Source of the DNA: Eledone cirrhosa
Lineage: Eukaryota
DNA: 64,000 nucleotides
NCBI GenBank assembly: GCA_964016885.1
Contig: OZ024740.1
Location: 90,210,001 to 90,274,000, forward strand
Direction: 5' to 3'
Part shown: positions 15,947 to 63,903 of the stretch, one piece after another
How positions within the stretch are numbered: the stretch's first letter is position 1
How the letters are laid out: the number at the start of each line of letters is the position of its first letter
The notes under the pieces: model-generated
Seen by the model: only the letters and a program-made list of their open reading frames with translations
Told to the model about the DNA's origin: nothing
Databases searched by the model: none
Program-made: the position numbers and the translations under genes

Positions 15947-16081
<135 letters not shown>

Positions 16082-26048: not shown

Positions 26049-26102
<54 letters not shown>

Positions 26103-26199: not shown

Positions 26200-26260
26200 T
26201 TTCATTTACCAGTGGTTTCTTAAAAACAAAAAAATGTTGCTTTCAATCATCAGAATGAAA
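26200..26260 (-). ncRNA. Type I hammerhead ribozyme in the left pLTR arm
   Basis: Minus strand: TTTCATT-CTGATGA-TTGAAAGCAAcatttttTTGTTTTTAA-GAAA-CCACTGG-TA-AATGAAA. 7-bp stem I, 10-bp stem II with G-U pairs, GTA triplet. The mirror copy near 32043-32103 has a mutated core (CTGTTGA, GATA). Confidence 0.8.
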
Positions 26261-26390
26261 AAAATCCTGGTGTATTTATTGACGTTGGATTTTAAAAACA
26301 AAAATGTAACCTATATGAAAGTGAGGCTGGAAAAGGAAGAAGGAAAGGAACAATAAAATAAAAACACACATGCAAACACACACACACAAT

Positions 26391-26428
<38 letters not shown>

Positions 26429-27254
26429 TACATACACACATACATACACACACATATATACACACACACATATATATATGTGTATATGTATACATACACA
26501 TACATATACACATACATACATACACACATAAATATCAACATATCCATACATACACATACATATGTACAACGACACACATATATATATATATACACATACA
26601 CATACATATACATACACATATACATACACATACATACATACATACAAAATCATACGTATATACACATGTACATACATACACATACATACACACATATATA
26701 CACGCATACATACGCATGCACAAAAATAGAAATATATACACACATCTCTACATACTCACATACACATATATACACCTACACACACATATATATATACACA
26801 TACGTATGCATACGTACATACACACACATACACACATATACATATATAACTAAATATATATATATATATATGAGAAAGAACATAAATATTATATATATAT
26901 ATAAAAAATAAATATTGTATAGGTATAAAAATATAAAAAAAATATTGTATATATGAAAAATAAAAATAAAAATAAAAATGAAAATAAAAAATTTGGAATA
27001 CGACAAATAATAAATAAAACAATATATATTTAAAAAAGGGTATAAATGCCTATAGCAGATTTAGAGCACTCAACAAGCTACTGGAGCATAAGATCAATGA
27101 AAATAATCATTAAATCACTATATGTAATGATGCTTATACATACACCATTATACATATATACATATACATATATATATACACATATATATACATACACACA
27201 CACACACACACACACAAACACAACCACAGAGATACACACACACATACAATTACG

Positions 27255-27294
<40 letters not shown>

Positions 27295-27452
27295 TCGGAA
27301 AAAGTCTGACCCAACGACAGAGCTCAAGCCGTTTCTGAGGCTATTATACACACAAAATCATTATATAAAAAATACATATACACGCACAAATATACACACA
27401 CCCATACATACACATTAAATCTATATATACACACATACATACATACACATAT

Positions 27453-27635
<183 letters not shown>

Positions 27636-27808
27636 TACACACATACATATATACATATAAATATATACACACACACGCACAAATACAACAGAAATATATA
27701 TAATATATACGATTATATATACATATACATATGCATACAGATAGATATAAATAAACATACATACAGACACATATATACATACACATATACATATGCACAT
27801 ACATACAT

Positions 27809-27867
<59 letters not shown>

Positions 27868-27929
27868 CATATACATATATACACATATACATACATGTAC
27901 GCAGCACACAAAAAAAATTAATATCTAAA

Positions 27930-29940
27930 AAGAATGAGATGGAAGGCAATGGTTTACGATGGACTATTCAGTGTTGATACTAATGATTGTTCTGACATAA
28001 AATCCCGTAAATATCCACCTAGAATTAAAGACATGGCCAACTTCGAATTATACCTTGTTAATTCAATTAGTGATATCAAATTGCGTAAGTACAATAATAA
28101 TTTTCAAACTAAACTGTCTAACGATATTTCTAATTTTAAAAATTATACAAACACATTTGTTCTTTCTGATAAAACTAAAAATCTCTTTGAAGTTAATAGT
28201 ATTTTGTATACCCAACTTTTAACTAATAGTATCACCAACAAATATCCATTAACTAATAATAATACCTACAATACTATTAATAAAGAAGCTAAATAACTAG
28301 CTAGTTATTTAAAAATAGACAACCGGATTGAAAGCCTAGCTAAGGGTAAAGCATATATTACCCTTAAAGACCATAAATTAGACTTTACTAATTGACCTAG
28401 TTGTAGACTGATTAACCCGGCTAAATCCGAAGTTGGCCTTGCAAGTAAAAAAATCTTAAGAAATATAATTCTCCAAATTAGAACTAAGACTGACCTATCA
28501 CAGTGGCTAAATACTTCCTCTGTTATTTCTTGGTTTAATAATATACAAGTTAAAAGTAAGTGTAGATTTACCCAATTTGATATTGTTGATTGTTACCCTC
28601 TATTACGCTTTCCTTATTAACTAATGCCTTAGAGTTTGCAAGACCCTTCATTAATATTTCTAAATTAGAAGAAGACATTATCTTTCATGCTAGAAAAACT
28701 TTACTCTTTACTAATGAAACTATTTAGGTTAACAAGTAAACCCTGAAAACTCTGTTGATGTTTCAATGGGTTCATATGACAGTGCGGATGTGTGTGACTT
28801 AGTAGGATGATTCCTTCTCCACACCCTCAAAGAGAAATTTCCTTCCCATAATATCGATTTATACCGTGATGACGGATTGGCAGTTTCTCATACCACCAAC
28901 GGCCATAACCTTGATAAATTCCGTAAAGATTTAATCAATACTTTTGCTAATCTTAACCTTAAAATTATTATAGATACGAACCTTACCAATGCTAACTTTC
29001 TTGACATTAATCTTGATCTACTTACCGCCTCTTTTAAACCTTATTATAAACCTAATGAAAATCTTAGGTATATACACAAAGATTCTTGCCATCCCCCTAT
29101 AGTTTTTAAAAATCTTATTCCCAACATTAGCCGTAGGATTTCTACCTTATCTTCGTCTATAGACATTTTTAATAAAGCCCTTAAAAACAGCGGTTTTACA
29201 GAATACATTTGTTATATACCTACTCCCCCCTCAAACTAACCAAAACAATAGGAAAAGGAAAATTATCTGGTTTAAACCCCTCTTCTCTCTAACTCTCAAA
29301 ACTAATGTAGGAAGGAAATTCCTTAAACTCTTAGATAAACATTTTCCTCCTAATCATAGATATTATAAGATATTTAATAGAAATGTAGTTAAGATCAGTT
29401 ACTCTTGTTGCCCATCAATGAAGTCCAAGATCACTAATTCAAATCATACGAGGACAAATCCAGGATGCAGTTGCAGGAAGCCGGATGGATGCCCATTACA
29501 GGGCAAATGTAACACCAAATCTGTTGTTTATGAGGCTAAAGTGACACCTTTAATCAACAACCACCCAGCCAGGAGAGAGCGATATGTTGGCATGACCCAG
29601 GACAGGTTTAAAACCAGGTTTTATGTACATGTCGCTTCTTTTAAGCACTCCGATAAACGAACAGCAACGGCCCTCGCAAGTAAGGTGTGGGAATTCAAGG
29701 ATAAAAACATCCCGTACTCTATCGATTGATCTATTTTAGACCATTCGAGGGAGTAACAAATGGTCACATTGGATTGTTCTTTGTGTACCACATAAAAATA
29801 TAGGATTTTGCTAAACTTGAAAACCACTTCTGCTTGCCTGAACTCAAAGACCGAGAACTTCAGATGTTGTCGTCATCTGAAATCACATCTGATCTGTAAC
29901 TGGATTGACATTCCTATGATAACTCAACCACCTTGAACTC
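27930..29940 (+). pseudogene. PLE reverse transcriptase + C-terminal GIY-YIG endonuclease (Naiad-like), multiple stops and frameshifts
   Basis: RMRWKA, SDKT, TLKDHK..CRLINPAKSE, MGSYDSA, YRDDG, FLDI, CSCRKPDGCPLQGKC, VVYEAKV..YVGMTQDRFKTRF..H, CSLC..CRH. Confidence 0.85.
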
Positions 29941-30152
29941 CGCTCTGCTCTTTACTTCCACTACGGTTTTTTACCCTGCTGAATCCACGTTCTGTACTCT
30001 TGAATTCTCTTTCTCCCTTATCTCCCTTTATATTTAAACCTTTTCCTATTTTTTTGCCTTACCCTTCACATACCAACATTTTTTTTATTTTTAGATATTA
30101 ATTTTTATTCTTTTTTTGTGTTGCGCATATGTATGTATATGGGTATATATGA

Positions 30153-30235
<83 letters not shown>

Positions 30236-30394
30236 GTGTATATATATGTGTATGTATATGTGTCTATGTGTGTTTATTTATATATATCTGTATGTATACG
30301 TATATGTATATATAAACGTATATATTATATATTTATGTTGTATTTGTGCGCGTGTGTGTATATATTTATATGTATGTATGTATGTGTGAATATA

Positions 30395-30452
<58 letters not shown>

Positions 30453-30458
<6 letters not shown>

Positions 30459-30564
30459 GAAAATATATAGCTTTCACCGTATTTTTGACTAAAGAAATTT
30501 TAGCTTGATCAAGCTAAAATTCCATTAGTCAAAAATACGGTGAAAGTTATATATTTTCTAATTT
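30453..30564. repeat. Spacer-less palindrome, 56-bp arms, within (TA)n
   Basis: Centre AGCTTGA|TCAAGCT at 30508/30509; absent from the opposite pLTR arm. Confidence 0.9.
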
Positions 30565-30597
30565 CAAACTCGCTCACTTTTTCAAAACATACTTACT

Positions 30598-30725
<128 letters not shown>

Positions 30726-31404
30726 ATATGTGTATGTATGTATCTGTGTATATATAGATTTAATGTGTGTGTATGGGCGAGTGTTATGTGTGCGTGTATA
30801 TGTATTTTTTTATATAATGGTTTTGTGTGTATATATATAATAGCCTCAGAAACGGCTTGAGCTCTGCCGTTGGGTCAGAATTTTTCCTATGTGTGTGTGT
30901 ATATATATACGTAATTGTATGTGTGTGTGTATTTCTGTGGTTGTGTTTTTTTGTGTGTGTGTATGTATATATATGTCTATGTGTATATATGTATAAGGGT
31001 GTATGTATATGCATCATCACATATAGTGATTTAATGATTATTTTCATTGATCTTTTGCTCCAGGAACTTATCGAGCGCTCTAAACCTGCTGTAAGCATTT
31101 ATACCCTTTTCTAAATATATATTTTTCTATTTATTATTTCTCGTATTCCCAACTTTTTATTTTCATTTTATTATTATTTATTTTTTTTTTTTTTATTATT
31201 TTTTTTTATATATACAATATTTACTATATATATATATATATATATATAGTATTTATGTTCTTCCTCATATATATATATATATATATATATATAATGTATA
31301 TGTGTGTGTGTGTGTATGTACGTATGCATACGTATGTGTATGTATATATTTGTTTATTCAAGTATATATGTGTATGTGAGTATGTGTGTATGTGTATATA
31401 TGTG

Positions 31405-31447
<43 letters not shown>

Positions 31448-31577
31448 GTTAAATAAAGTTCATATGAATTATCTAAGAATGAGTTTTACACACATATATA
31501 TGTGTGTGTTTGTATTTGTATGTATGTGTCTGTGATATTATGTATATGTATGTGTTTATTTGTATGTTTATGTATGT

Positions 31578-31635
<58 letters not shown>

Positions 31636-31797
31636 ATGTGTGTGTGTGAGTATGTAGAGGTGTGTGTATATATTTCTATGTTTGTGCATGCGTATGTATG
31701 CGTGTATACATGTGTGTATGTATGTGTATGTATGGATATGTTGATATTTATGTGTGTATGTATGTATGTGTATATGTATGTGTATGTATATATACAC

Positions 31798-31837
<40 letters not shown>

Positions 31838-31862
31838 ATATGTGTGTATGTATGTATGTGTG

Positions 31863-31905
<43 letters not shown>

Positions 31906-32161
31906 ATAATTGTGTTTCTCTGTGTGTGTTTGCATGTGTGATTATATTTTATTTTTCCTTTCCTTCTTCCGTTTCCAGCCTCACTTTCATATAGATTGCA
32001 TATTTGTTTTAAACTCCAACGTCAATAAATACACCAGGATTTTTTAATTCTGTTGATTGAAAGCAATTTGTTTTTGCTTTTAAGATACCAGTGGTAAATG
32101 AAATAATTTCCTTATGTTGTTTATTACATAACTATATATATACATATATATATACATATAT

Positions 32162-32460
32162 GATATTAATAAATGGAAATTATATTCATAAAACCATATC
32201 TATTTTATTATATATATTTAAAGGGTACCAATATTTTGGTAAGCTCTCATTAGATATAATACAACATTTGTTTTATAAATAGTGACATACCCAAGAAATC
32301 AAACCTCATCGTTTCAGGTTCAGTTTGACTATCCAAACTGAACCTGAACCGTTAAGGTCTGGTTTCTTGGGTATGTCACCATTTATAAAATAAATTTTGT
32401 ATTTTATCTAATGAGAGCTTACCAAAATGTTGGTACCCTTCAAATATATATAATAAAATA
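32162..32460. repeat. Fold-back palindrome with decayed hammerhead, related to the 49503/51727 pLTR family
   Basis: Centre about 32330. Right arm ATTTTAT-CTAATGA-..TACCAA..TTGGTA..-CAAA-TATATA-TA-ATAAAAT. Confidence 0.85.
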
Positions 32461-32584
32461 TATATATATATATATATATATGTGTGCATATATATATGTA
32501 TATATATATATATGTGCTTATATATGTGCTTATATATATATGTGTATATATATATATATGCGCTTATATATTTGTGTATATAAA

Positions 32585-32629
<45 letters not shown>

Positions 32630-32790: not shown

Positions 32791-32899
32791 CGAAAGAGGT
32801 GTCGTAAGGAAACAGATGGACCATAACGCACCAGAGTACTCAATACTTAGGGTAGTAGAATGGGTAATAGGAAAAGGTTGAACCCCGACGGCTGAGTTC

Positions 32900-33430
32900 T
32901 TTCGGCTCCTCGAAAAACACTTCGCACCACCACTACCACAACATAATCAACTAAAACACTAGCAAACTCTCCTACAACACCACACCCAACTTCGCACAAA
33001 ATATCGCTTCCTCAAACAACAAGAAACTCAACATCTATGGAAGAAACGACCTAGACATCTACGTAGCCCCTCAACAACAGAAGCCGAGAACGTTACGTGA
33101 TATACCAATGCAACGTGAAGACCGAAACTTCCAACTAATCCTATAGAGGATTAACCGCTTGTGATTTTAAAACCCAGCTCTACTAACTCCAACAAACTTT
33201 CCGAAACTCGGCACGGCGACATGCCACTACACTTTCGGGACACATCTGAGACCTCCAAGAGAATAACATAACATACAATCTTACTTGGAGCTTACTGTGC
33301 AGAGCTAACTCCAACACGGCATGAGGCCGTCTGTGTAACTTATGCTCGGAGGAAACATTACAAATGCTGTTTACGAAGGACCAACTCCGAAACAAAAAAG
33401 AGGAACTTGTAACTGCCTGTAAACAGGGAT
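32900..33430 (+). pseudogene. PLE relic (RT C-terminus + GIY-YIG C-terminus)
   Basis: Manual translation gives FFRLLEKHF, KLSYNTTPN, TTLSGHI, YNLTWSL, CNLCSEE and NKKEELVTACK. Confidence 0.7.
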
Positions 33431-33796
33431 TGCGTAGGACATACGTCGCCCTCAAACCCCCCAATGACCAGGGTGTGTAGATAAGGGCTGCAACACCCTA
33501 ATTTTCCCCACTTGCCTTACAAGATAGGGGAAACCCCAACTAACATAGGCAGATGTACTTCTTTTCTTTTCGTTTTTATATTCTTTTTCCCTTTATCTCT
33601 TCCTATCACTTCCTTCCGTTCCCTCTCCTCTTCCTTTTCCTTTTTCCTCTTTCGCCTACCCTGAGGCAGCCCATCTGGCTTTTGTTGCCTCAGTACCCCC
33701 ACCCCCAGTAAATTATATATAGCATTGGCCGAAAACGCAATAAATATGGCAGCTGCTATAGACTCTAGGGATTTTTTTATTACTTTTTACAATTAT

Positions 33797-33902: not shown

Positions 33903-34118
33903 TTTCATATTCTAATCTCAATTTATTAACCTATTCTATAACGTCCCACTCTTTAGTTCATCTAGAAACCTTTTTCTGTTGCTTCCTAACTAGCCTAATT
34001 TCATTACACACTCCTTAGAATTTGCTGTATAGAATTCACTTTCAACGCTTGACCGGCCCCACCGACTCCCTCATTGTTCTACAGGCATGTTTAGCCACCC
34101 CACTTCCCACCCACTGCC

Positions 34119-34855
34119 ATGAAAGATTTAATTGTGTTTACAAGAAATGTTGACCAATTCTTTAGACAACTACAATATTCCCATAAAACTAGAAATGTAG
34201 TATATAGCATAAGATGTACTGAAGGACAATGTAGAGATAAGAATATAGTGTACATAGGTGAGACAGCTCGTAGTATAGGGGAACGGATAAATGAACACTG
34301 GCGAGAGCTTCAATCATCTGTACTCTACCAACATGCAAACATAGAACATAAGGGTAAATTAGAGAACATAGAAATAAAAATAGAATCTACACATAGAAAA
34401 GACGCAATGTTTAGACAAATCACAGAGGCAATAAACATAAATGAACTCCAACCAAAATTAAATAGAAGACATGAATGGAACAGCAACATCACAACTTACA
34501 ATTAAGGACAAAATGAAAACACACTCGCACATAGAACAAACAACCAACCAGTAACATGTAAATAAACAAATAAATAAACAAATATAAACACACACATACA
34601 CCCGGATGTAACAAATGCGCAAACTAAGCACACAACAAACACAAAAACAAGATGGCGTAGGACAGAACAAAGGAGAGGCACAAAAACAAAGAAAATAATC
34701 CCCAGTCACTGAAGAGGTCACATAATGTGTGACGAAAGAACTTTGGCAATATATGAACAATCATCTGGTTGTGGAACCAACCAAGCAACCGGAAATTTAT
34801 GAATTCCTAAATTTATAAATTTATTATAATAAATTGAAGTGAAAGCAACAGGTGC
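34119..34855 (+). mobile_element. PLE 3' fragment: GIY-YIG endonuclease (ORF 34119..34505) + pLTR
   Basis: NVVYSIRC..C..VYIGETARSIGERINEH..H..EAININELQPKLN. A minus-strand copy lies at 42700-43262. Confidence 0.85.
34705..34747 (+). ncRNA. Minimal type I hammerhead-like motif
   Basis: GTCA-CTGAAGA-g-GTCACAtaatgTGTGAC-GAAA-GAAC-TT-TGGC. Homologue with TTGAAGA at 42855-42897 (-). Confidence 0.55.
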
Positions 34856-34886
<31 letters not shown>

Positions 34887-42699: not shown

Positions 42700-43320
42700 A
42701 GAAACACACGCACCATCTGCTTTCACTCCAATTTATTATAAATAAAAAAATAAAAATAAATAAATAATAAAAAAAATCGTTTAAATGTTTTCAAAAAAAT
42801 TATATATTTCCGGTTGGCTGGTTGGTTCCACAACCGCACGTTTCTTCATACATTATCAAAGTTCTTTCGTCAAACATTCTGTGACCTCTTCAATGACTAG
42901 GGATTATTTTCTTTGTTTTGTGCCTCTCCCATGTTCTGTCCTACGCCATCTTGTTTTTGTGTGTGCTGTGTGCTTAGTTTGCGTATGTGTTACATCCGCG
43001 TGTCTGTGTGTGTTTTTATTTGTTTATTTATTTGTTTATTTACATTTTACTGGTTGGTTGTTTGTTCTATGTGTGTTTTTCTCATTTTGACCTTAATTGT
43101 AAGCTGTGATGTTGCTATTCCATTCATGTCTTCTGTTTAATTTTGGTTGGAGTTCATTTATGTTTATTGCCTCTGTGATTTGTCTAAACATTGCGTCTTT
43201 TCTGTGTGTAGATTTTATTTTTATTTCTATGTTCTCTAATTTGCCCTTATGTTCTATTTTAGCAGAGGCACCCGGATGTAACATATGCGCAAACTAAGCA
43301 CACAACACACACACAAACAA
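42700..43320 (-). mobile_element. Second copy of the GIY-YIG PLE 3' fragment with a short inverted pLTR piece at its 5' end
   Basis: 42700-43262 is the reverse complement of about 34340-34855. 43269-43320 repeats 42955-43000 in the opposite orientation. Confidence 0.85.
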
Positions 43321-44219: not shown

Positions 44220-44226
<7 letters not shown>

Positions 44227-44676
44227 GTTTGAATATGTATAATAAAGCCAAAACAATGCAGGTATGGACATAGAAAAAAGAATACAATTGAAAAAGATAT
44301 TGTTGACAATTCGCCTTTTACCTTAGTTTTATTTAAATGTCCTTAATTTTCGGGATAATATCTCTTCTTCAGAGGGAAATAAAGGTCTCAAACCAGCGTT
44401 CTAAATATCTTGCCAAGCCATGCTGACAGGAAATAGTATAGAGTATCTGATACTCTATACTATTTCCTGTCAGCATGGCTTGGCAAGATATTTAGAACGC
44501 TGGTTTGAGACCTTTATTTCCCTCTGAAGAAGAGATATTATCTCGAAAATTAAGGACATTTAAATAAATCTAAGGTAAAAGGCGAATTGTCAACAATATC
44601 TTTTTCAATTGTATTCTTTTTTCTATGTCCATACCTGCATTGTTTTGGCTTTATTTTACATATTCAAACGTTTATA
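44220..44676. repeat. Near-perfect palindrome, 228-bp arms, 1-nt spacer (T44448)
   Basis: GAGTATC-T-GATACTC centre; only a few mismatches between the arms; left flank is (TA)n. Confidence 0.95.
44521..44555 (+). ncRNA. Ultra-minimal hammerhead-like motif (mirror copy 44341-44375, minus strand)
   Basis: CCT-CTGAAGA-a-GAGATattATCTC-GAAA-AT-TA-AGG; loop-less palindromic stem III AATT. Confidence 0.6.
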
Positions 44677-45418: not shown

Positions 45419-48362
45419 TATATGCATACATAACTATAGAGGAGTGATACATATATAGAATGTGAACCGCTGCACGCTATCCTTAAAAGTACTGAAATGT
45501 ATTTAGCAGATCTAGCATGAGGTACCATCAAGGATCACCATCCAAATACTCTCTTTTATTGCGATCATCAAAGTGAAAACCACGCTCAGAGAAGACAATC
45601 ATGATTTTTGGGGCTTGTTAGCATTGGGACATATCCTTCAAATGCTACAAAGAAAATCACTTGTAGCAAAATAAGAAGAGAGGTGATAGAAGAAATGATG
45701 CATGTTTCACACTTTAATTTTATTTTTAATGAAGAATGATAATAATGTTAAATATGAAAATATGAAATCAATTCTAGATACTGTTAATTATTAGTGTAAC
45801 CTTTAAGTGAACTGAATTATGGAAACTGATTATTGTTGAAATTATATCTTTCACCTATATAGTGTTGAACTGCACATTGATCTTTTCTTATTTTTAGAAC
45901 AGTAATGACATCAATAAATATACAAATAAATATTACACCATATATAACTGTTAGGTCTGAACATAACGGAATCAAATCCCCATTGCCACTGCTTCCCTCT
46001 CTCTTGGTCTCCATATATCTTACTATTGTAAGCAATTGTGGGGCCACGTACTGGTCGCCCCGCAGCCTCGGCGGGCAGCATAGAGAAGTAGGATGGTGAG
46101 AGAGACACGTTAGAAGAGCCATTCAAGCTCATAAGGCCGTCTCCACTGCTTCGGGACCGACCGCAAACCAGTCGAATAATATTTGGAGAGTTTGCCCTTC
46201 ACGGCCCGAAATGAACCAGGGATTAATTTTATTAATAATTTATTAAAAACTAAAGACAAAAGAGATGTTTTATTATTCACAGTTATATAAATAACATTAC
46301 AAATACAAAATAATTTATTCGAAGATGGAATTATGAAAAAGAAATATAAAAACATTATCAAGTATTGAAAATAAGTGGCAGGTCTGTTTCTATTGTCATG
46401 CAGCTAAGAATTCCCGGCCTTTATTGTCGTAGGCTATTCAAAACAAAACATGGCTTTCCGTGAGATTTTCCCACGCTCATATAAACCTCCACTATGTTCA
46501 TCATACTTCTTTTCACTCTCCGTGTATAATGTTATGCTCATTTTCGGTAAGGAAGCAGGAGCAGCATATATGAACAGGGAAACTGTTAACCTGGGTAGGA
46601 GAGTCACGCCTTTAGACGTCAAATTGTGTAAGAGAAAAAAATGCTAAATGGAAACGAGAAGATTATGAAGAAGAAGTTTATTTTTACATAAAAATGTTTT
46701 AGGGACAAACAAAATAGGTTGCTTTCACACAAACAATCACACATTAAGACAATATGGACAGTGTTTGTTTATTTTATATTACTACACGTTTCCTATAACC
46801 CCTATATAATGATTAAACTGTATTTGATAAATAAATGTTTCGATTGTTCGAAATGATTTTTCTTGCAGTTATCAATATGTGAAGATATTCACAAACACAC
46901 AATATTTCATATATGCACACACATGTGCATAAATTTACTCTCTATATTTATCTATATATCTCGTTATCTATTTCTTATCTATGTCACTCATTCTCGTTTA
47001 CACATATATTGAACTCGTGGATATTGCTCTGTGTCGTGTATGTTTCCATAACACGATTATGTTTTCGTGCCATAATCATAATTGTTGGTCACTAAGCTGA
47101 TGTTTCTGTGAATATTGCGATGTGTTGTTTAAAATCACAGAATCTCACATAATTGCCTCCAGATAAAAGCTGATTTTAAAACAATATTTTCTTATAAAAA
47201 ATGCACATATGATATATATACTATTCTTAAGCAACGGCATCATTTATTACCAAGCGCAAACATTTTGGTAAAAGAAACTGGCATGGAGTCAGTATTTATT
47301 GTATAAAAGTGGTCGTATTATCTATAAACATGCACAAAAATAATTCACTGAAATCAAAATAAATCAGAATACATCACAATATTTTTTGTTTATTTGTTCT
47401 CCTCTTTATAATGACATATATTACAGTAGAATTCTGAATGTTTTAATGTAGTTATACCATTATGTAAACATCTTACGTTGTTCATTAAATAGTTGATGTG
47501 GTTTTCTAAATAAATATATACATATACACCAGGTCCAAACACAATGGAATAAAAATTCCACTGTCACTGCTTCCCCATCTCTCCTGCGTTCCCCATCTCT
47601 CACAATTGTGAGCAAATAGGGGCCCAAATGTTCGCCGCCCCGGCAGACAGAATAGAAAAGCAGTTTTCTAGGAGAATGGTGAAGGAGACGCATGGAAGAG
47701 CCATTCCAGCTCACGAGACTTTCACCTGCCTGAAGCCAACGCTGAATCGATGGTTGTATGTAGGGTGGTGATCATAGGGCGAAGGGCAGTAGAATATTCC
47801 CCTGCTACAGATAGCCCGCAAACCCGAAGTGCCACACAGTCGTAGTTAATGACACAATGCGCAAGGTTTCCGATATATGTGGTATCCGAGATGAAGAGTT
47901 TACCACCGCAGAAGTGTAAGATAGTCACGTCGTGCCGTCTGCCCATTTGACTTACACTCGGTGGAGGAGCCTGCACCATCCAAGCCATGTTATATTACAA
48001 CATTGAGAGCAGCATCGCCTGAAAGGCGGCCGGTACTGTAGTAACAGGACATCGGGTAGATGCCGAAGGAGTCCACGGTACCAATGCCATGTGTTACACC
48101 CTCCAGTATTCCGATGATTCGATCAGTGACAAACACTGTATTTAAGCTCGAGTGACGCAATGTCGGGTGATTAGCGGCCTTTCGACTCACCTGATCAATG
48201 AAACAATTGTAAATACTGCATATAAAACTCTTTTTGTATATAAAACATTTTTTTTTAATTACGAGGGTTGATATATCACGTTGGTTGGACATATTTAACC
48301 TGAAGCGAACGGAAAATACAGGATAAAGAGTAAAATGTACAGACCGTTTCAATAGCTATTTC

Positions 48363-48450
48363 ATCTACCGGACAGATTAGATATTTAATCTGTTTCGCCC
48401 TGAGCATTTTGTTTGTAACAGATAATCCGTGGGCATCATCAGCGAGAGAT
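48363..48450 (-). ncRNA. Type I hammerhead ribozyme with full stem III
   Basis: TCG-CTGATGA-t-GCCC..GGGC-GAAA-CAGATTAaatatcTAATCTG-TC-CGG; GTC triplet. Confidence 0.8.
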
Positions 48451-48683
48451 AAGATCAAATGTGGCAAACACCTAAAACTAAAAGCTATACGAATTAATAT
48501 TTCACCTCGTGTGCGAGAAGTCTGAAGTGGCGAGAGGGGATCGGCTAGAAACGATAGCCTAAATACACCCAACTTATAAGTTAGGGAGCCGAAATTCAAA
48601 TAAAAGGCATAGTTAATAACTCATATAAATACCCTGTAATTAACAAGCTCAAAGTATAAATACTGAGCATTATATAATAAGGA

Positions 48684-48875
48684 AAGGCGGTGGATTTGCA
48701 GTATTGGTAGAGGGTCGGACACCATGCTTTGTAGCATAGAGTTACCTCCCTTTATGATTTGAGTTCAAATCCCGCCGAGGTTAACTTTACCTTTCATCCT
48801 TACGGGGTCGATAGAATAAAGTACCAGTAATGCACTGGGTAATTTATGGCCTTGTGCCAAAAGTAGAAACAATTA
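48684..48875 (+). mobile_element. SINE family 1, full length
   Basis: A/B boxes; TSD ATTATATAATAA (48669-48680, 48872-48883). Confidence 0.9.
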
Positions 48876-49026
48876 TATAATAATATATTTAGTAATAAAC
48901 TGAGTAAATTGTGTGTTTAAAATTACGAGAGTTGTTATACCACGTTGGTTTGACAGATTTAACCTGAAGCAAACGGAAAATACAGGATAAAGAGTAAAAT
49001 GTACACACCGTTTCAAAAACTATTTC

Positions 49027-49112
49027 ATCTCCCGGACAGAATAGAGATTTAATCTGTTTCGCCCTGAGGATTTTGTTTATAACATAATCCGTAGGCATCA
49101 TCAACGAGAGAT
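49027..49112 (-). ncRNA. Type I hammerhead, second tandem copy (C3U change)
   Basis: ATCTCTCG-TTGATGA-t-GCCT..GGGC-GAAA-CAGATTA..TATTCTG-TC-CGGGAGAT; 8-bp stem I. Confidence 0.7.
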
Positions 49113-49190
49113 AAGATCAAATGTGGCAAACACCTAAATCTACAAGCTACACGAATTATATATATATATATTTATATTTATATTTATTTC

Positions 49191-49322
<132 letters not shown>

Positions 49323-49352
49323 CATCATCATCGTCATCATCATCATCATATA

Positions 49353-49418
<66 letters not shown>

Positions 49419-49544
49419 AAAGTTCTATTTAAAATTATGGGATACAACCAGAAAATATTTTATAACTGATATAAAGCACTCGACAATTTTTGGAGTAGAT
49501 ATACGATATTAATAAATGGAAACTATATTTATAAAACCATATTT

Positions 49545-49607
49545 ATTTCATTATACATATTTCAGGGATACCAAATTAAAATATGGTATCCCTTCATCAG
49601 ACAAAAT
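49545..49607 (-). ncRNA. Type I hammerhead in the left pLTR
   Basis: ATTTTGT-CTGATGA-AGGGATACCAtattttaattTGGTATCCCT-GAAA-TATGTA-TA-ATGAAAT; perfect 10-bp stem II. Confidence 0.8.
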
Positions 49608-50375
49608 ACAATATATAAACAGTTTTATAAATAATTTTGACGTACCCTATTAAATACAACCATTATTTTTGGAAGCTGTCTGGATAGTGAAATGTTTATA
49701 TTATTTTATTAGTTATAGTGTTAAGCACAATTAGAAAAAGACGGAGAGAAAGAAAGAAAAAAAAATGAATTAGATGAATTAGACATTGAGAATAAAACAC
49801 AACCCTTCATGCCTAGGAAACCCAAGATCAATATGAAAGATCACAAAAGAAACTTTGAAAATGATTTGCCAGTCAGATTGATTGCACCATCTAAATCTGA
49901 CCTGGGAAAACTTAGCAAAAACATTCTAGAAAGGGTAATACAACAAATTAAAAACTTACCTAATTTACCTTACTTAAAGTTATGGAAGGGGACTGGTGAG
50001 GTTATTGAGTGGTTTAAAGAAATTAAATATAACTATAATAATAAGTTTATTCAGCTGGATATTGCTAACTACTATTCATCTGTCACACCTAATCTACTGA
50101 ATAAGGCACTAAATTACGCATTTAAACATACTGACCTAACTAGCAATGAAATGCACATTATATTATCGGCAAGGAAAACATTGATAGAATTTAATAACCA
50201 ACTCTGGACTAGGGCAGATAGAGATAATAATTTCGACATAACTATGGGATCATCAGACTCAGCTCAGGTAACGGACCTTGTGGGCCTATTTATAATTAAT
50301 TCGCTACATAGAAAAATACCAGGTGTAACCGGAGGATTATATCGTGATGACATGCTTTTACTTATTGAAAATAAT

Positions 50376-50558
50376 TGTTTCTACTTTTGGCACAAGGCCA
50401 ACAATTACTCAGTACATTACTGGTACTTTATTTTATCGACCCCGTAAGGATGAAAGGCAAAGTTAACCTCAGCGGGATTTGAACTCAGACTGTAAAGGGA
50501 CGTAACTATGCTAGAAAACATGGCGTCCAACCCTCTACAGATACTGCCAATTCACCGC
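50376..50558 (-). mobile_element. SINE family 1 inserted in the PLE RT just after YRDD
   Basis: TSD CTTATTGAAAATAAT (50361-50375, 50560-50574). Confidence 0.9.
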
Positions 50559-51621
50559 ACTTATTGAAAATAATGGCTGTGAACTAAATAGAAAAAGAAA
50601 ACAAATTATACAATTTTTTAATTACCTTAATCTAAAAATAGAAATAGAGAATAACCATAGAATAGTCAATTTTCTGGATGTAACACTAAATCTCAACACA
50701 TGTCTTCATTATCCATTTCACAAACTAAATGAGAACTTGAATTATGTCAATTTTAACTCTAATCACCCCAGATCTGTTAAAAATACTATAGTGAACTCTG
50801 TTCAAGAACGAATTTCAAGAATTTCATGTAATAAAAATATTTTTGATGAAAAAGCGCAGTATTACAATGAAGCGTTAGGTAGAGCAGGATATAGAGATAA
50901 CATTAAATACATCGATAATAATAATAAGCAAACTAGCCAAAATAATAACAATTTCAATTACGGTAACAACTTTAACAACTATAATAGAAAACATTACAAT
51001 AATTCCAAAAGCCGAAAAAGAAATAGAACTAGAAATATATTATTGTTTGCCCCCCTTTCTCACTAAATATTAAAACCCATATTGCTAAACTATTCTTTAA
51101 TGCTCTTGACAAACGCTTACATAGAACACATAAATATTACTCAATTTTTAATAGACACACTATAAAATTAACTTACTCGTCCACCAAAAATTTAGCACAA
51201 AATATTAATAGAATTAATAATAGGAATTTAAAACCTCTATATATAGTATTTTCTCTCTCTTGAGTTTTCTATCTGTATGATGACTTATTATCTCTCTGTT
51301 GCTTTCCTTTGTTTTTCTTATTTCTTCCTTTTTTCTTTCTTTTTTATTTCCTCCTATCAATTTATCTCTTTCTTTTCTACATACATTTCTCTCTCTCTCC
51401 GATATTTCTCCAGGTTCTCTTTTTCTCTCTCTCCTTCTTTCTCTCTCCTTCTCTCTCTCCGTCTTTTTTTTCTTTCTTTCTCTCCGCCTTTTTTCTAATT
51501 GTGCTTAACACTATAACTAATAAAATAATATAAACAGTTTACTATCCAGACAGCTTCCAAAAATAATGGTTGCATTTAATAGGGTACGTTAAAATTATTT
51601 ATAAAACTGTTTATATATTGT

Positions 51622-51684
51622 ATTTTGTCTGATGAAGGCATACCATATTTTAATTTTGTATCCCTGAAATATCTATAATGAAAT
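51622..51684 (+). ncRNA. Type I hammerhead in the right pLTR
   Basis: Same motif as 49545-49607 with two stem II mismatches. Confidence 0.7.
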
Positions 51685-51724
51685 AAATATGGTTTTATAA
51701 ATATAGTTTCCATTTATTAATATC

Positions 51725-51836
<112 letters not shown>

Positions 51837-52286: not shown

Positions 52287-53510
52287 TATATGCAAATTAA
52301 TGAAGGTGTTACGAGACGTTATATCAAGTTCGTTATATACATCTTACATATGTTTCGCCCAAACTAGTTCCTCAGAGAAATGATTGTTTATATAATGTCA
52401 TCAACAGATATAAATACTGTTAGGGCAGGCTGAAAATATTTCCATTAGATTAACGTCACCTTGCATGGTAGGCAAAAATACTAATAATGGCGTAGGTGAA
52501 AGGGGCATATTCCGCTAAGGGGGTCAACTGCACAGTGTAGAGGCAGGAAAGCAGCCTAGAATATTTAGTATCTTCCAGCTAGAGGGATGGTTTAGCAGGG
52601 TGTGTCTAACTCAGAAGATGATAGGCAGTGCTTAGGCAAAAAAGATGTAGCTGGTTAATAGCATCATTAAATACGCTACATAGGCCTAACTATTGCAGGA
52701 AGAATTAAGTGGTGGTGTGATGTAGATAGCTGTGGTGCTAGGAGGTTATAACTGGTCTAGAGACCTGTTGTAGAACGAGTCTTGTAGCCTGTGGTTGCAA
52801 TTTATGAACATCTCAGTTCGACTATTAATGAATTCATGGGGTGAGCTTATTATATACTATGTTTCCATTAGGCACAGCTTACAATTCTTTCTAAAGTTGT
52901 AAGGCGTTGCTTTATCTACTATTCCCCATTGTTTTGTGTAGCTAATGTTAGTGTCAATTAATAGTGTAATATAATTAGCAAGGGGTGTAGAGAACCTGAT
53001 TTTTGTTATTTCTAAACGAGGGGAAATGAGATCTAAATCTAGTCTTGAACTCATTAGATGTGGCGGTTATGTAAGACCTAGTGCTATTTTTACTCATCAC
53101 CGTGCATTTATAGATTAAATTTCTAATCAGGCAGTGGTCCTGGAGTTGGCATTTGTCATGATTTCAGCAATTGTAATTATTTTTGTTGTTATTTCTAATG
53201 TGGTAAAGGCCATTGATATCATTACTACTATTATTACCACTATCACCATTATCATTATTACTACCGTTGGCATTATTACAGATATAATTTTGCAAGACGA
53301 TGTTAATCTTGTTGTTCCTATTATGATTCCCTCCACTGCTGTTGTTATCGCTGCTATGGTTCCTATCCTGGTCAGCAGTTCCCTTATTACTGTTGCAGCT
53401 AGTCTCTATAGTGTTGATATTGTTGATGATATTGTTATTACTATCATTATTATTCTGGTTAATATTATTGCTATTATGGCTATCGCTATTGTTATGGTTA
53501 TTAATGTTGC

Positions 53511-53608
53511 AGGTTAACTTTGCCTCTCATCCTTGCGGGGTCGATAAAATAAAGTACCAGTAATTTATTTGGTAATTGCTGGCCTTGTGCCTAAAATAGA
53601 AACAATTA
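53511..53608 (+). mobile_element. SINE family 1, 5'-truncated
   Basis: TSD ATTAATGTTGCAGGTT (53500-53515, 53605-53620). Confidence 0.88.
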
Positions 53609-53749
53609 ATGTTGCAGGTTGTTCTAATATTGGCATTACAAGAAGGTTTGGTGCTAGTGAGCTTCTTGTGGTTAATCAGTGCTATAAGATCGGTTAAGTT
53701 AGGTGTAATAGAGTAGGATATTTTGACATTATTATTGTTAAGCATCTTA

Positions 53750-53940
53750 AGGGCGGTGGATTGGCAGTATCGGTAGAGGGTCGGACGCCGTGCTTTCCAG
53801 CATAGTTACGTCCCTTTACGATCTGAGTTCAAATTCCGCCGAGGTTGACTTTGCCTTTCATCCTTACGAGGTCGATAAAATAAAGTACCAGTAATGCACT
53901 GGGTAATTGCTGGCCTTGTGCCTAAAGTAGAAACAATTAT
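53750..53940 (+). mobile_element. SINE family 1, full length
   Basis: TSD ATTATTGTTAAGCATCTTA (53731-53749, 53936-53954). Confidence 0.92.
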
Positions 53941-55029
53941 TGTTAAGCATCTTATGGCATGTATGGTTAGGTGGGAAGTTTTTCTCTCAGGCGTCGAAGA
54001 AGATTCTAGGTAAGTCTGAGGTGATAATCCTAGAGTATGGGGAAGGAAACATAAGACATTAAGGTGGAGTTTCCGTGATGTCGTTGGGCCGATGCAGTCG
54101 TTTCCGCCCTGGTGGGTGCTTCTACTGCAGCAGTTGCACTGCTACCTGCTGTGCACACAGTTTTTTTAGTCCAATGTATTAAACTATTCCCTGAGGAGCC
54201 GGCCTGAGTTACTGTATGTTTGTTTGTAGGTGTTGGAAAAATGCCGTCTCCATTGTTGTGCCTGTATGCAGGGATTTTTCTAATAAGTTATTTCTAGCTA
54301 CATTGTCAGAATTAGATTGGCACCGGCTCGTGGATCTACCTGGCTTATTACTGTTGCTGTCCTGATATTGTACTGGGCCAGTCGGACTTTTGTTTACACT
54401 CTCATATTTCTTATGATCAAGCACGGTTTTGCAGTGTTTATTGGTGCGCCTCACCGTTATACTAGTCCTATAGGAGGGGACTTAGTAGAACTAGTGTCCT
54501 GGATGTAGGAAATCCTATTGTTATACTCCGATTCGGCCAGTGCTTTGTTGTAGTAATCAGCAGTTTGGTCGAAAAAGTCCTAGCTGGCCGATAGCTTCGA
54601 GATTCCGTGTGAGACTCTTAACGTAAGAGAGGATCTCGTCTGGCTTGTGGTGCTGTCTATAAACGTCAGTATCTAACTCCAATGTTACATCTAGGAAGTT
54701 AACTATCTTATGGTTATGGTCTGTTGTAACTGAGAGCCCGTACGTTTTAAAGAATTTATGGATATGCTTACTGTGGCTTTCAATTCTACGGGTTTTGTAA
54801 TTTCATAGAGTAAATAGGGCGTCGTCTCTATATACACCTCCCCGTTGTGGAGGGATCTTTTCCCTGACTTATGCAGGAGGTATATTCCAACCAGGTCGGT
54901 TACTTGTGCTGAGTCATTCGACCCCATCGTGTAATCGAAATTATCAGGATGGTTGGATCGGGTCCAGTATGAGCCTTCGAAGTGAATGATGGTTCGTCTA
55001 GCTGCTCGTACTATGTCTGTATGTTTATA

Positions 55030-55348: not shown

Positions 55349-57247
55349 GTATATTACCTTTGAAATGTCGAAGGCCACATGGCATTGGCGTGAAAAACTA
55401 GAGTAGTGATATTATTATTGAAAATCGCTTAAAATAATTCTAAAGAGAGAAAATATATGGCTAGGACCTTCGAATTGTCGATGCTGATCTCTTATTTTCT
55501 ATCCCTAAGGTGATATTAACCGATTTAATAAACTTATATTTGAAGCGAATTTGGGTTTGTTTTTCAATATTTCAAATTTAACATCTTCTAAACTCCACGA
55601 TAAACGAATGATTTGATTAATCACTGATGTATCTCAAAACTGCGAATCTTCTATATAGATATTTATATCGATGTTTGACGAATAAATTCACAGAGAGAGT
55701 GGGAATAAACGGTTTATATTGCATAATTATGAAACAGTTGGATTTAAGTTAACTTACAAAAGTATCCATGAATAGCACTATTTATATGGATTATATATAT
55801 ATTTTTAATATGTATTGTTTATGTATAACTACAATTGTTAGATTATGATATATTTTGCTAGGTAAACGATTGTATACACTGTCTTGTATAAATGTAATTA
55901 AGCAATTTAGCCGCTTCGACGGCAGCAAAATTAAAATTATTGAAACGGTTCTGTTTATTTAAAAAAAAGTTTTGGTTTGTGTATGATATAGATACATGTA
56001 AGCCATTTAGCTATCCTTAGACAGTAAATGAGGATATGTATTCCCTGAGTAATTTTCTGGTTGAACAGGAAAATAGTTTAATCCGTGTATTGGTGTGTCA
56101 AGAAAGATTTATAAATATTATTGTGTTTAAGTGTAACTACACTGAGAACCGAAATTTATTATTACATCGAAATGAAAATTAATGTTAACTGATAAGAAAT
56201 ATTTCCATATATGGTGTGTTTTTTATAACTAATTTCCTTGAATGTATAACAAATTGTTTGAACAACATCATTTTAATTATTACCTGATAACCGCAGCTCT
56301 ACGTGTGGATACATATGGTCCTATTTCAGACACACTTGTTATATGCCATGGCGTATTACTCTTTGGCAGGTTATGCGTAGTAACACTTATTGTGGATATT
56401 ATGTTATATTGCACTATAATCTTTGCTGACAGTGTTATATTATTTGTGTATACATTGATGCCCATCATTTGTGTACTGTATCATTGTAAACGAATATAGA
56501 GGAAAACATGTATATGCCTGTTAAGTTTATTATTGTTGTATTAATTTTATATTTGATACACTGTATCAAATAAGTAACCATCCAATGTTAAGATTGTGAA
56601 ATCGTATGAAATAGATTTGTAATACTTGGTTGTAATTTTATTAGTGAAATCTATATTTAAAAGCATAGATGAACACAATATATAAAGAAAAGAAAATGAA
56701 TATTAGTCTAAACACTGCAGAAATAAATGTGGCAATGTAGTTCAGTAGAAAATATATTACATCTCTAGATTTTGAACATTCCATTTTGAGAAATAATTTG
56801 TTTGTCAGATGTATTCAGAAATCTCAGCTTACATTAAATTAACTATGCGTATTTTGTAATAAATATACAGAATATAATTCTAAAGAAATTGTATTGCAAT
56901 GTATTATCGCGGTGCATATAGATAACTACTTATTACCTTGTAGTTATATCACAGTGAGACAGTGAGCGAACGTCCTTACAATCGAAATAATTCATTCAAC
57001 GTACTGTGTAAAAAGTAAGCGTACACTCAACAATACTATCCATATCTTCCATGCGACGTTTACTATATATATATATAAATATAAAAATATATATATATGT
57101 TTCCCTGTTTTACTGATAGCGCACTGTATATCTCTCTCTAGTGTGTTACCTTTTCAACATATTGTATTTTAAAGAGCTCAGGATTTATTCTCCTTTGAGC
57201 ACATTATTTACAGGAAATGGCGAGAGTCTATGGCTCCGTTAATTTAT

Positions 57248-57297
<50 letters not shown>

Positions 57298-60708: not shown

Positions 60709-63700
60709 CATTCTTTATTAACTACAAGGGTCTACATAAAGTAGACATTAAGGACAGTACAGGACAATACAGGGCGGTAAAATGGGCATTTCTGCGTGTA
60801 AAAAACAAGAAACAGAGGATGTAATAATAGAACAATGAAAACATTTCACAATAAGGGCGAGACTACCGAGGCAAATTTGTGGAGAAAGCCCATTAAAAAG
60901 CGACAGTGACCCTGATCACCAGGTCAAGTGCACTCTCCCAGTTTTCCACCTTTAATTTACAGACACATACTCAGAGTAGGCCTATTCACTCGGGCCATTC
61001 TTGCCTCTCTCACCCATCTTTCAACAAAATGCTGGGAAGAGAGTACTTCCCATTCTACCCTGATTTTCCTTTTTAAATGAAAATTGAAAAAGTTAATCAG
61101 GGCATCACTGAAGAGGTAAGTGCTCGTCTTCAGCCCTTTCAAACGTGTCCACCATACTATCTCTTTCGCCATGGCCATGAGACAGATAAAAACTGCCTGC
61201 CCTTCTCGGTAAAAGGAAGAGGGCGGGGCAATCCTCACGATGGATCCAGCTGATAGCTGGATCCGTCCTACACGCGACAGCAGGTGTTCGACATAAACCC
61301 ACAAGTCAGCAATGCTCGGACACTGGACGAGTGCGTGCAGGACGGTTTCGTCGCCCTGCGCGCATCTCGGACATGCCCGGCTGACGGCACCTCCATACCT
61401 GTATAGTTTATCCCGAACTGGCAAAGCTCCTCGGTAGCACTGCCAGGGCAGGGATTTTTGAAGTTGTCCACAGGCCCCGGCACCGAAAATTCTTCCGAAG
61501 AGATTGGTTAGTTGATTTTCGTCGACGCCTAGTGTTTCCCCAAGTACGTCGTCGCTCTTCCCCTCCACTAATCCTCTATAGAACGCAAATGTGGAGTTTT
61601 CACCGAACACATTTCCCGATATGTCCATGGCTGTGAACGCCTGAAGACATTCCAGTCTCCAAGCGTTCCCTCTCGGTCTTCGCTTGACCCAGTACTGCAG
61701 CTCCGTCAAGGAGACGAGCTGGGGAAAAACGTGTCTAGCAAACGGCGACCACACCTGATTACCGTCGAGGAAGAGGTTGAGATGTCGTAGCCTGAGCGCG
61801 TGTCTGCGCATCATCAGCCACGGTATTTCCAGTCCTCCATGTAACGGGTATTGACAGCAGATGGACTGCCTGACCATCGGAGCGCGTCCCTTCCACAGAA
61901 AGCGAAAGAGCAAACGCTCCAGCGCAGTCACCGGGGCTTAGGACAAGGTACGACGGTCAGGCGGTATTAGATGACGGACGCGATATACGCGTTAGCCACC
62001 TCCGCTCGACTTTTCAGGGATAGCTTCCTCTCGGCCCATTTCTGGGTGAGAGAAGCCCCCCTGCTCGTCACCTCGTCCCGGTGTTTGTCCGTCTGGAGAT
62101 CCGGACCGAACCAGACCCCGAGCAATTTAACTGGTCCGTACGTCCAGTGCCCGACGATGCTGTTGGACGGCATGGACCTGCCTCTCCAGTTGCTGAGCTG
62201 CAGGCCCACTGACTTTTCCTGGTTGATCATTGCTCCTGTCACCGCTTCGTATTCTCTTATTGTAGTGCCGATCGCCTCGATGTGTTTGGCGTTCCACACC
62301 CCTACGATGACATCGTCCGCATATGCTGACACGGATCTTGCGCATTCTAGTTCGCGCGGGACCCCCCTCAACGTCTCCAGTGTGTGCAGTAATGGCGCGA
62401 GAGTTAATATGTACAAGAGGGACGAGAAGGGACATCCTTGGCGGACCGAGCGCATGATGTTGAACGGTTCCGAAAGGTCACCGTTCACTTTCAACACAGA
62501 GCAGATGTCGCTGTGCATGGCAGCGATCCAGCCTCTGAAGACGGGCCCAAAACCAGCCGCCCTCAGGACAGCCTCTAGGTAACGATCGTCGACCCTATCG
62601 AAAGCTTTCGATTGATCTAAATTGATCAAAGACCCACCCGTGCCAGGTTCCATAGCTACCCTCCCTACGATGTATCGCATGAGGTGGAGGTTGTCGTGCA
62701 TGGATCTGTCGGGAATGGCGCATGTCTGCGCCTCTCCCACCAGACCATCAACGACAAGCGCCAACCTCTTTGCTAGCACCTTGGCCAAAATCTTGAACTC
62801 TATGTTTAGCAGAGTTATGGGCCTAAAATTATCTATGTTATCCCCCTTGTTCGGATCCTTTCTCAGCAGCGCCACAGCTCCTCGTCTCAGAGAGCACGGA
62901 ATTATCCCGTTCTGTTGCCAGTTGCAGTAGACGTCCACCAATCGGCATTCGAACAAGTCTGGCATCTGTACGTAAAGTTCATAGGGCAGCCCATCCAAAC
63001 CAGACGATTTACCCCTTGTGCAGCTAGTCATTGACTCCCGTACTTCAGCGGCTGTTATCGACTTTTCGCAACACTCCACCTCAGTGGCCGAGAGCCGCTG
63101 CAGTCCGTCGAGGTACACACTAAAGTCCATCCCTCGATCCGGCCCGCCGCTGCTTCCGAACAACTGAGCGAAGTGTCGCTGAAAAGCTTCACACATTTGC
63201 CCGGGATCGAGTCGCATGCGCCCGTCGTGGTCCACCAAAGACCGGATCGTGGCTTTGTTGCCACGACGCGTCTACGCCAATCGGGCCCATTGAACCGCTT
63301 TCGTCCCCTCGTGTCTGAGAGCACGCACCCTAGCTCTGACAACGCAGCCTCCGTGCTTTGCATTGAAAAATTGGTCAAGGGCCAATTTCGCCGCAAGTAC
63401 GTCGGTTGCGATGCCTTTGCTAAGCGCCTCGTCTAATGTTCTACTAATTCTCCCTCTGCTCTATTTTTCTCTATTGCTAAAGCCTTACTAAACCTAATGG
63501 ACTCTATTCTAATTGCTCTTTTCAGAGCAAACCACCACTTGTTGTTGACGGTGGCACACGTCAACGCCCGCCTAACTAGTTCGCTAATCCGGTCTCTGTA
63601 GGCCTTGCGCGCTGGTAAGGATGCGTTTAGCCTCCAGTAGCCGGGTCCTCGTCTATGAAGCCTATCTAAGTCAAGCCCACAGATCACGAATTTGTGGTGC

Positions 63701-63903
63701 GTATAGCTGACTATCCTGAATTGTGGACAGCCTATGCTAGACCTATCTATTTCTCTACAAACTACTCTATCTAGATATGATCTGGATGACCCTATGCGAT
63801 TTGTCCAAGTCCACATTGGCACATTCGGCAAATCAAATCGGTACCTGTCAGACATTTCAAAACGCCTGAGCTGGTTGGTGAGGCTCTTGCACCCTCCTCC
63901 CCT
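60709..63903 (-). mobile_element. Second Tx1/L1-clade copy, 5'-truncated, ORF2 broken
   Basis: High similarity to 1-2135. ORFs 63433..63855, 61967..63238 (YADD) and 60957..61931 (CPRC..HALVQC). AATAAA at 60714-60719 then an (ATT)n tail; 5' break at (TA)n. Confidence 0.92.

Follow-up and report, generated by a model that had tools for sequence, protein, structure and literature searches.

Paired hammerhead repeats in Eledone cirrhosa as the likely remnant of a short non-autonomous PLE, probably of the Hydra clade

Two hammerhead motifs lie on the minus strand of a 64-kb stretch of Eledone cirrhosa DNA (64,000 nt of contig OZ024740.1, referred to here as the window). What kind of element left them there, and is it likely to be active? 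The original prediction read the pair as a retrozyme-type monomer or a solo tandem pLTR. The features of the locus, in window coordinates, are as follows.

49159..49415, no strand: (TA)n/(GA)n/(ATC)n microsatellite tract, adjoining the 5' end of copy A and dividing copy A from the neighbouring PLE
48921..49158, minus strand: repeat copy A, 238 nt, a 5'-truncated upstream copy, pLTR-like
49025..49114, minus strand: hammerhead A, with a 10-bp stem I, C3U at 49104, 7 of 8 pairs in stem III and a predicted cut at 49035/49034
48884..48920, minus strand: remaining 3' end of copy A, presumably leading into the TA-rich unit junction
48872..48883, plus strand: right copy of the SINE target-site duplication, 12 nt, TA-rich
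48681..48871, plus strand: SINE, an antisense insertion at the unit junction
48669..48680, plus strand: left copy of the SINE target-site duplication, 12 nt
48647..48668, minus strand: bulged boundary hairpin, with a 4-bp outer stem, a 4-bp inner stem and a 2-nt 3' bulge
48499..48646, minus strand: non-coding unit body, common to paralogous contigs
48257..48498, minus strand: repeat copy B, 242 nt, without the final ~49 nt present in copy A ahead of the junction
48361..48452, minus strand: hammerhead B, with an intact core at 48442, an 8-bp stem III, a stem I mismatch at 48367 and a predicted cut at 48371/48370

Copies A and B are direct repeats on the minus strand, with 19 mismatches over 238 aligned positions and four gap columns in addition (K2P 0.084). 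The locus consists, in order, of the microsatellite, copy A through its TA-rich end (287 nt), the SINE and a nearly full unit, which runs from the hairpin to 48257 and comprises 412 of 461 nt. The predicted cuts are 664 nt apart, or 461 nt when the SINE body and one 12-nt duplication are removed; the cut positions and both spacings reproduce the values given in the original prediction. The SINE is 89-92% identical to three other full copies within the 64-kb window and looks like an octopus SINE. GC content of the unit is low, at 35%. No outer target duplication was seen around the whole unit, with the microsatellite at one end and the truncated repeat at the other; it could not be set because the continuation of the truncated flank repeat is absent from the window. 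The boundaries are TA-rich: (TA)n adjoins copy A at its 5' end and the unit junction is rich in TA; copy B is truncated at its 3' end. It should be noted that (TA)n targets are also used by Naiads, and are thus not clade-specific (PMC8557442). No tRNA gene was found between 47500 and 52000. The window as a whole is AT-rich and contains many microsatellites and retroelement fragments.

In each hammerhead, stem I has 10 bp, A9 is followed by one extra nucleotide, stem II has 4 bp and is lengthened by two further helices, and stem III has 8 bp. The full type I descriptor matches at hammerheads A and B only in the 64-kb window, while one of 100 shuffled windows gave one match and none gave two. 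Rfam yielded no match at gathering score over the whole window, and none of the 13 weak matches at E≤10 between 47500 and 52000 is a hammerhead. The two minus-strand type I motifs with GTC triplets, and their predicted cut positions, are confirmed, but the claim that both are well formed is not. In copy A, the core carries C3U with G8 kept, and one stem III pair is broken. Copy B is predicted to misfold, and one pair is broken in its stem I and another in the extension of its stem II. What was described earlier as a "large stem II loop" turned out to be an extended, bulged stem II. The probability of the hammerhead topology from ViennaRNA is 0.50 for copy A, in which the hammerhead is the predicted minimum-energy structure, and 0.014-0.019 for copy B. 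The stems of the two copies differ by four changes: three disrupt a pair, one leads to a wobble and none is compensatory. This is the pattern of neutral decay.

The natural covariant of the C3-G8 pair is U3-A8 (PMC4209133, PMC3088659). Other single changes of the 3-8 pair abolish cleavage (PMC11167929), and some natural core variants stay active (PMC3088659); no cleavage measurement for U3 with G8 was found in those parts of the literature that were searched. C3 is probably kept by the family, since it does not appear among 40 of the 188 difference rows between family contigs and the locus. The extra nucleotide after A9 is a trait of PLE hammerheads (PMC4209133), and the first four pairs of stem III match exactly, by eye, 4 of the 26 Hydra-clade rows in File S2 of PMC8557442.

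The longest ATG frame in the doubled monomer encodes 60 aa, and no Pfam, homologue or PLE-protein match was found in the unit. The single RT/GIY-YIG ORF of an autonomous Hydra-clade PLE is absent from it. That no RT lies between the hammerheads, as first predicted, was confirmed by a best tblastn E value of 0.65 among the matches listed for PLE proteins against the unit. The possibility that the spacer is a decayed ORF end was rejected, as it has no Pfam, homologue or PLE-protein support.

The boundary hairpin at 48668-48647 directly follows the TA-rich SINE site, 164 nt downstream of cut A when the SINE is left out. A strict hairpin descriptor has four matches in the window, at 26161, 48668 and 49496 on the minus strand and at 57176 on the plus strand. 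In 200 window shuffles the mean number of matches was 0.17 and the maximum 3, and 3 of 20,000 spacer shuffles matched; these figures overstate the case, as the descriptor was written after three of the four window matches had been seen, and only the one at 57176 was fresh. Position offers a better control than the shuffles. Two Hydra-type PLEs with inverted pLTRs are present in the window (ORF matches at 27916-29900 and 49779-51194). Both have a direct pLTR that ends in (TA)n at the hairpin edge and an inverted pLTR that extends across the hairpin, the latter in the manner of the optional PLE "tail" (PMC8557442, PMC11167929). The hairpin therefore marks the end of one unit and the start of the next. 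We infer that the hairpin at 48647..48668 is the 5' start, or "tail", of the unit; the SINE inserted at this hairpin-marked junction. To the eye, the element at 27916-29900 is similar to Hydra-1_Obim as published (PMC8557442); an RT with the DKT motif, a CxCX5C linker and, at the C terminus, a GIY-YIG are present in this element and in P0001/P0002.

The hairpin survey covered the Hydra consensi and the PLEs of the window. The other PLE type of the window (hammerheads at 34709 on the plus strand and 42893 on the minus strand) has the hairpin in neither of its two copies. The same hairpin architecture is seen by eye in four of the six newly described Hydra consensi in File S7 of PMC8557442: it follows the hammerhead in Hydra-2_Amil, Hydra-2_Ajap and Hydra-1_Crog (one outer mismatch), and stands at the very 5' start of Hydra-1_Ajap. 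It is not visible in the Hydra-1_Obim and Hydra-1_Amil consensi of that file. A Hydra boundary hairpin was not found in print in the open-licence literature, and the words "hairpin" and "stem-loop" do not occur in the main text of PMC8557442. The small hairpin at the unit start may be a signal recognised by the Hydra-type enzyme.

To what extent the unit is a family and not a single locus can be judged from contigs of four of seven sequencing runs, which were compared over 48100-48725. The compared stretch takes in copy B, the right-hand spacer and 45 SINE nucleotides, and ends short of the passage that leads from the repeat end to the hairpin (48921 to 48669) with the 49-nt left part of the spacer; the 461-nt period is therefore seen at this locus only. 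Out of 188 difference rows, 425 loose ends and 6,348 pieces, the comparison draws on 40, 24 and 16, respectively. One contig, with a depth of 14.4, is identical to the locus. In the 3' part of the repeat the summed depth comes to 1,845-3,388; at the ribozyme core it is 13,247-16,135, in the spacer body 283-936, and between 48625 and 48666 it reaches 21,585-42,880. Summed depth is not copy number, and is used here only to say that all parts of the unit are repeated. It remains at least 283 throughout the spacer, with no drop at the 5' edge of repeat B.

A 265-nt contig covers 48394-48663 with 29 other letters, and it is a paralogue because it carries the family majority alleles. In this contig the hairpin block, the body and the ribozyme are joined with no ORF between them. 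Two further contigs cross 48500. Another one, over 48534-48680 with 14 other letters, departs from the reference precisely where the target duplication ends, and looks like a SINE-less copy. In one contig of depth 247, position 48511 is joined back to 48304; this single joint suggests an amplified head-to-tail variant of ~210 nt. The right-hand 170 nt of the spacer are common to diverged copies, and at least one paralogous contig leads from spacer to ribozyme without an ORF. On both points, the conservation of the spacer and a unit that is not always attached to a PLE ORF elsewhere, the original prediction stands. These contigs show spacer and repeat to be one unit of a dispersed family.

The alleles at 48495 and 48464 are common to copies A and B and absent from 98-99% of the summed depth of the other contigs. 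Twelve difference rows within repeat B were compared, of which eight give the copy A allele and four differ from both copies, two of these four at 98-99%. In other words, at 8 of the 19 differences between A and B the listed other letter is that of copy A, including the allele that restores stem I. As A and B share rare alleles, they derive from one template, followed by independent decay of ~4% each. RAD read ends at 48208, 48257 and 48638 (three of the six listed places) were rejected as element ends; all of them share a 4-letter site and were most probably produced by restriction, a reading that also removes an apparent 36-nt "tail" (48257 versus 48293). Two skip joints with 24-letter sides, each from one contig, were discounted as unreliable.

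BLAST of the repeat against the three other pLTRs in the window showed no similarity, and the neighbouring RT was dismissed as the parent, being a Hydra-type element but with a different pLTR. No Naiad, Chlamys or Hydra consensus published in PMC8557442 contains the repeat motifs, two chance matches aside. The Naiad 3' ends shown in that paper do not match either, and the repeat is not taken to be the 3' end of octopus Naiads. With a two-sequence covariance model of the repeat, the nearest real hammerhead reached only 15.2 bits (E 0.09). In these comparisons an autonomous parent was not found. The gapped core pattern had no match in viral contigs. Its seven matches in metagenome contigs, with no wider similarity, no hammerhead fold and at most 12.7 bits under the covariance model, were attributed to chance.

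We consider it likely that the locus is an old, decayed partial tandem (~1.5 units) of a short, ORF-less non-autonomous PLE with a period of ~461 nt, probably of the Hydra clade. The order within the unit is boundary hairpin, non-coding body of ~170 nt, pLTR with a type I hammerhead, and TA-rich end. In its pLTR-body-pLTR order, the locus has the layout of a PLE that has lost its ORF, and the unit looks like an internally deleted PLE that kept its pLTR and boundary hairpin. Of the proposed retrozyme-type monomer or solo tandem pLTR, the short ORF-less tandem of PLE type is upheld; the locus is decayed, and the two labels are hardly alternatives.

The same layout might arise from two 5'-truncated 3' ends of a long autonomous PLE in partial tandem, i.e. 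a solo pLTR pair with no short master element. Partial tandems of truncated copies are common in PLEs (PMC8557442), and the fall in depth from ribozyme to spacer (2123, 1153, 926, 936, 542, 423, 283) is like a 5'-truncation gradient. However, the depth climbs again to 42,880 at the hairpin, paralogous contigs tie the hairpin block to body and ribozyme within ~270 nt with no ORF, and a coding remnant was not found in the unit. We regard this origin as improbable. A satellite-like history, in which unrelated DNA came to be flanked by a ~240-nt dispersed repeat through local duplication or two separate insertions and no unit was retrotransposed as such, is quite improbable: the spacer is family sequence continuous with the repeat, and the junction is located exactly at a PLE-type TA/hairpin boundary. 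The shared rare alleles speak against independent insertions, though not against local duplication, and such a history would be consistent with copies that are 8% different, an abundant family and a target duplication not seen around the whole unit.

There is only a very slight chance that the locus is a live retrozyme giving a circular RNA of 461 or 664 nt. It does have two cleavage triplets in tandem, copy A has the hammerhead as its minimum-energy fold, 40 of 40 shuffles fold less well than the 664-nt circle (z -2.5), and the natural core variants mentioned above retain activity. Set against this are C3U without G8A in copy A, the predicted misfolding of copy B, stem changes that break pairs in three of four cases with none compensatory, and a SINE that interrupts the unit. 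Because of C3U, the stem mismatches and the SINE insertion the locus is probably inactive, and the 461-nt circle is probably not made. A function is unlikely, and the locus is best seen as a fossil.

In the preferred reading, that of a short non-autonomous PLE, the element would work like a metazoan retrozyme. The mechanism is drawn by analogy from the PLE and retrozyme literature, in which PLEs are characterised by partial tandems, tails and (TA)n targets (PMC8557442) and retrozymes are treated as non-autonomous PLE derivatives (bioRxiv 10.64898/2026.07.22.740005). Tandem copies would be transcribed, and the hammerheads, whose 8-bp stem III should permit monomer cutting, would release RNA of unit length, which may then become circular. 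An autonomous PLE would provide its RT/GIY-YIG protein in trans; probably binding and starting near the hairpin, this protein would nick a TA-rich target and copy more than one unit. Such copying would leave a 5'-truncated upstream copy A joined to the full unit B, and decay and the SINE at the TA-rich junction would follow after insertion. Reverse transcription of the anole PLE begins within a stem-loop that is located downstream of the hammerhead, and two start sites enclose the tail (PMC11167929). This PLE, the only one tested in vitro, inserts without need of hammerhead cleavage, and no reads end at the cut site (PMC11167929). Since cleavage is dispensable there, a circular intermediate is possible and not required; a linear tandem precursor leaves the same footprint.

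We have compared the unit with known systems. Like metazoan non-LTR retrozymes, it is an ORF-less, low-GC head-to-tail unit a few hundred bp long, with a hammerhead of type I topology in each repeat (carrying C3U in copy A and predicted to misfold in copy B), belongs to a multi-copy family and coexists with PLEs; it is a candidate member of that class. The 461 nt fall within the 51-972 bp range of a recent preprint (bioRxiv 10.64898/2026.07.22.740005) and exceed the ~170-400 nt of the 2020 paper (PMC7229834), and only 1.5 units are present here. Stem III has 8 bp, in contrast to the usual 1-2 bp (PMC7229834, bioRxiv 10.64898/2026.07.22.740005). The "two complete HHR motifs" of the preprint are lacking here if C3U counts as incomplete (bioRxiv 10.64898/2026.07.22.740005). 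Described retrozymes are strongly self-paired as circles, whereas the unit here is not, in its decayed sequence: the circular 461-nt monomer has z -1.4 (4 of 60 shuffles as good) and the circular 210-nt unit z -0.4 (22 of 60).

Hydra-clade PLEs, including Hydra-1_Obim, share with the unit a hammerhead near the 3' end, the TA-rich boundary, the partial tandem/pLTR layout, a similar stem III base and, by eye in four of the six consensi and in the two elements of the window, the boundary hairpin (PMC8557442). They differ from it in the RT/EN ORF, which the unit lacks, in its extended stem II and in the absence of a sequence match to the consensi published there; stem III is 8 bp with a 6-nt loop here versus 3-4 bp with 1-3 nt in that clade (PMC8557442). 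Non-autonomous Chlamys PLEs such as MRC1 are likewise non-autonomous PLE derivatives with pLTRs and head-to-tail insertions, but are algal, of another clade and mostly without canonical hammerheads (PMC8557442). The fungal and protist PLE hammerheads described in PMC4209133 are of type I with a long helix III, and monomer-active in the one case assayed there; they belong to EN-less telomeric PLEs, in contrast to the animal ORF-less element here. Plant LTR retrozymes have the repeat-spacer-repeat look and a hammerhead per repeat, but with type III hammerheads, a 4-bp TSD, PBS/PPT and a Gypsy partner (PMC7229834, bioRxiv 10.64898/2026.07.22.740005). The hammerhead here has an open stem I and is thus of type I, and the repeat, with no fall in depth at its 5' edge, does not have a boundary of the family there.

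The class of element is already known; what is new is its probable link to the Hydra clade, together with the long stem III and the hairpin at the boundary. Neither a Hydra link of retrozymes nor an 8-bp stem III in such elements was found in the open-licence literature, and the same applies to a cephalopod retrozyme. The words "octopus", "cephalopod" and "squid" do not occur in the main text of PMC7229834, whose supplement may list further mollusc retrozymes, nor do "hammerhead", "ribozyme" and "retrozyme" occur in the text of the O. vulgaris repeat paper PMC13282606 as available. PLEs have been named as candidate mobilisers of animal retrozymes (PMC7229834), and sequence links between retrozymes and PLEs are given for Xenopus only in the preprint, in which other organisms were not tested (bioRxiv 10.64898/2026.07.22.740005).

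We also propose, as a doubtful extension, an active miniature Hydra-clade PLE family with units of 461 and 210 nt, in which a hammerhead with an 8-bp stem III would cleave as a monomer and yield circular RNAs, and the hairpin seen in cnidarian, echinoderm and crustacean elements and in this genome would be the binding or start signal of the RT-endonuclease. The locus would extend retrozyme-like elements to a cephalopod genome. The unit keeps both PLE ends and directs attention to a single clade and a single small RNA structure, which makes trans-mobilisation testable. If the proposed extension holds, an enzyme and its substrate would for the first time be named together in the trans-mobilisation of an animal retrozyme.

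Beside the unit, the ~461-nt hammerhead element without an ORF, lies a Penelope-like element (PLE) of the Hydra type, and further PLE sequences are spread over the window as follows.

49355-51835: Hydra-type PLE, 5'-truncated, with inverted terminal repeats (pLTRs)
49600(-) and 51629(+): hammerheads of this PLE
~50369-50558: SINE insertion within its RT frame
26100-32135: second Hydra-type PLE
26165-26384: its inverted pLTR, with a hammerhead at 26253(-) and a hairpin tail
31921-32135: its direct pLTR, core degraded
34095-34860(+) and 42700-43263(-): 3' end, present twice, that we take to be Penelope/Poseidon-like

The RT of the 49355-51835 element shares 51% identity with the PLE protein P0001 in tblastn, and the endonuclease is absent from this element. 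The ORF of the second Hydra-type PLE (27916-29900) is broken, with the DKT and CxCX5C motifs present. Adjoining this PLE, a degraded, inverted pLTR pair at 32153-32629 is related to its pLTR, at 71-76% identity. Additional fragments of Hydra-type PLE were located by tblastn at 52773-55014(-) and 32886-33456(+). In both Penelope/Poseidon-like 3' ends a GIY-YIG match (PF01541, E 3e-5) is followed by a hammerhead, which in the 42700-43263(-) copy has a T at core position C3, as in copy A of the unit.

Other repeats are also present in the window. A near-perfect palindrome at 44220-44676 (arms of 228 nt, 99%) contains a hammerhead-like core at 44524(+). A tandem repeat at 5040-6349 (four copies of 327 nt, 93% matches) gave no match in the hammerhead core scan. 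A non-LTR RT-like region occurs twice, near opposite ends of the window (161-1972 and 61932-63742), with ~95% identity between the copies.

A short fragment at 57090-57250, flanked on both sides by (TA)n tracts, carries the same boundary hairpin as the inferred unit start at 48647-48668(-), with one inner pair changed on both sides. The letters after this hairpin match the unit junction at 71% over 63 nt, a weak likeness because the sequence is AT-rich, and no clear hammerhead was found in the fragment.

Copy B (48257-48498, -) is adjoined by a different high-copy repeat, 48100-48238, which ends abruptly at that edge. Its remainder was not found within the 64-kb window, suggesting that a deletion cut this repeat and also took the 3' end of copy B.
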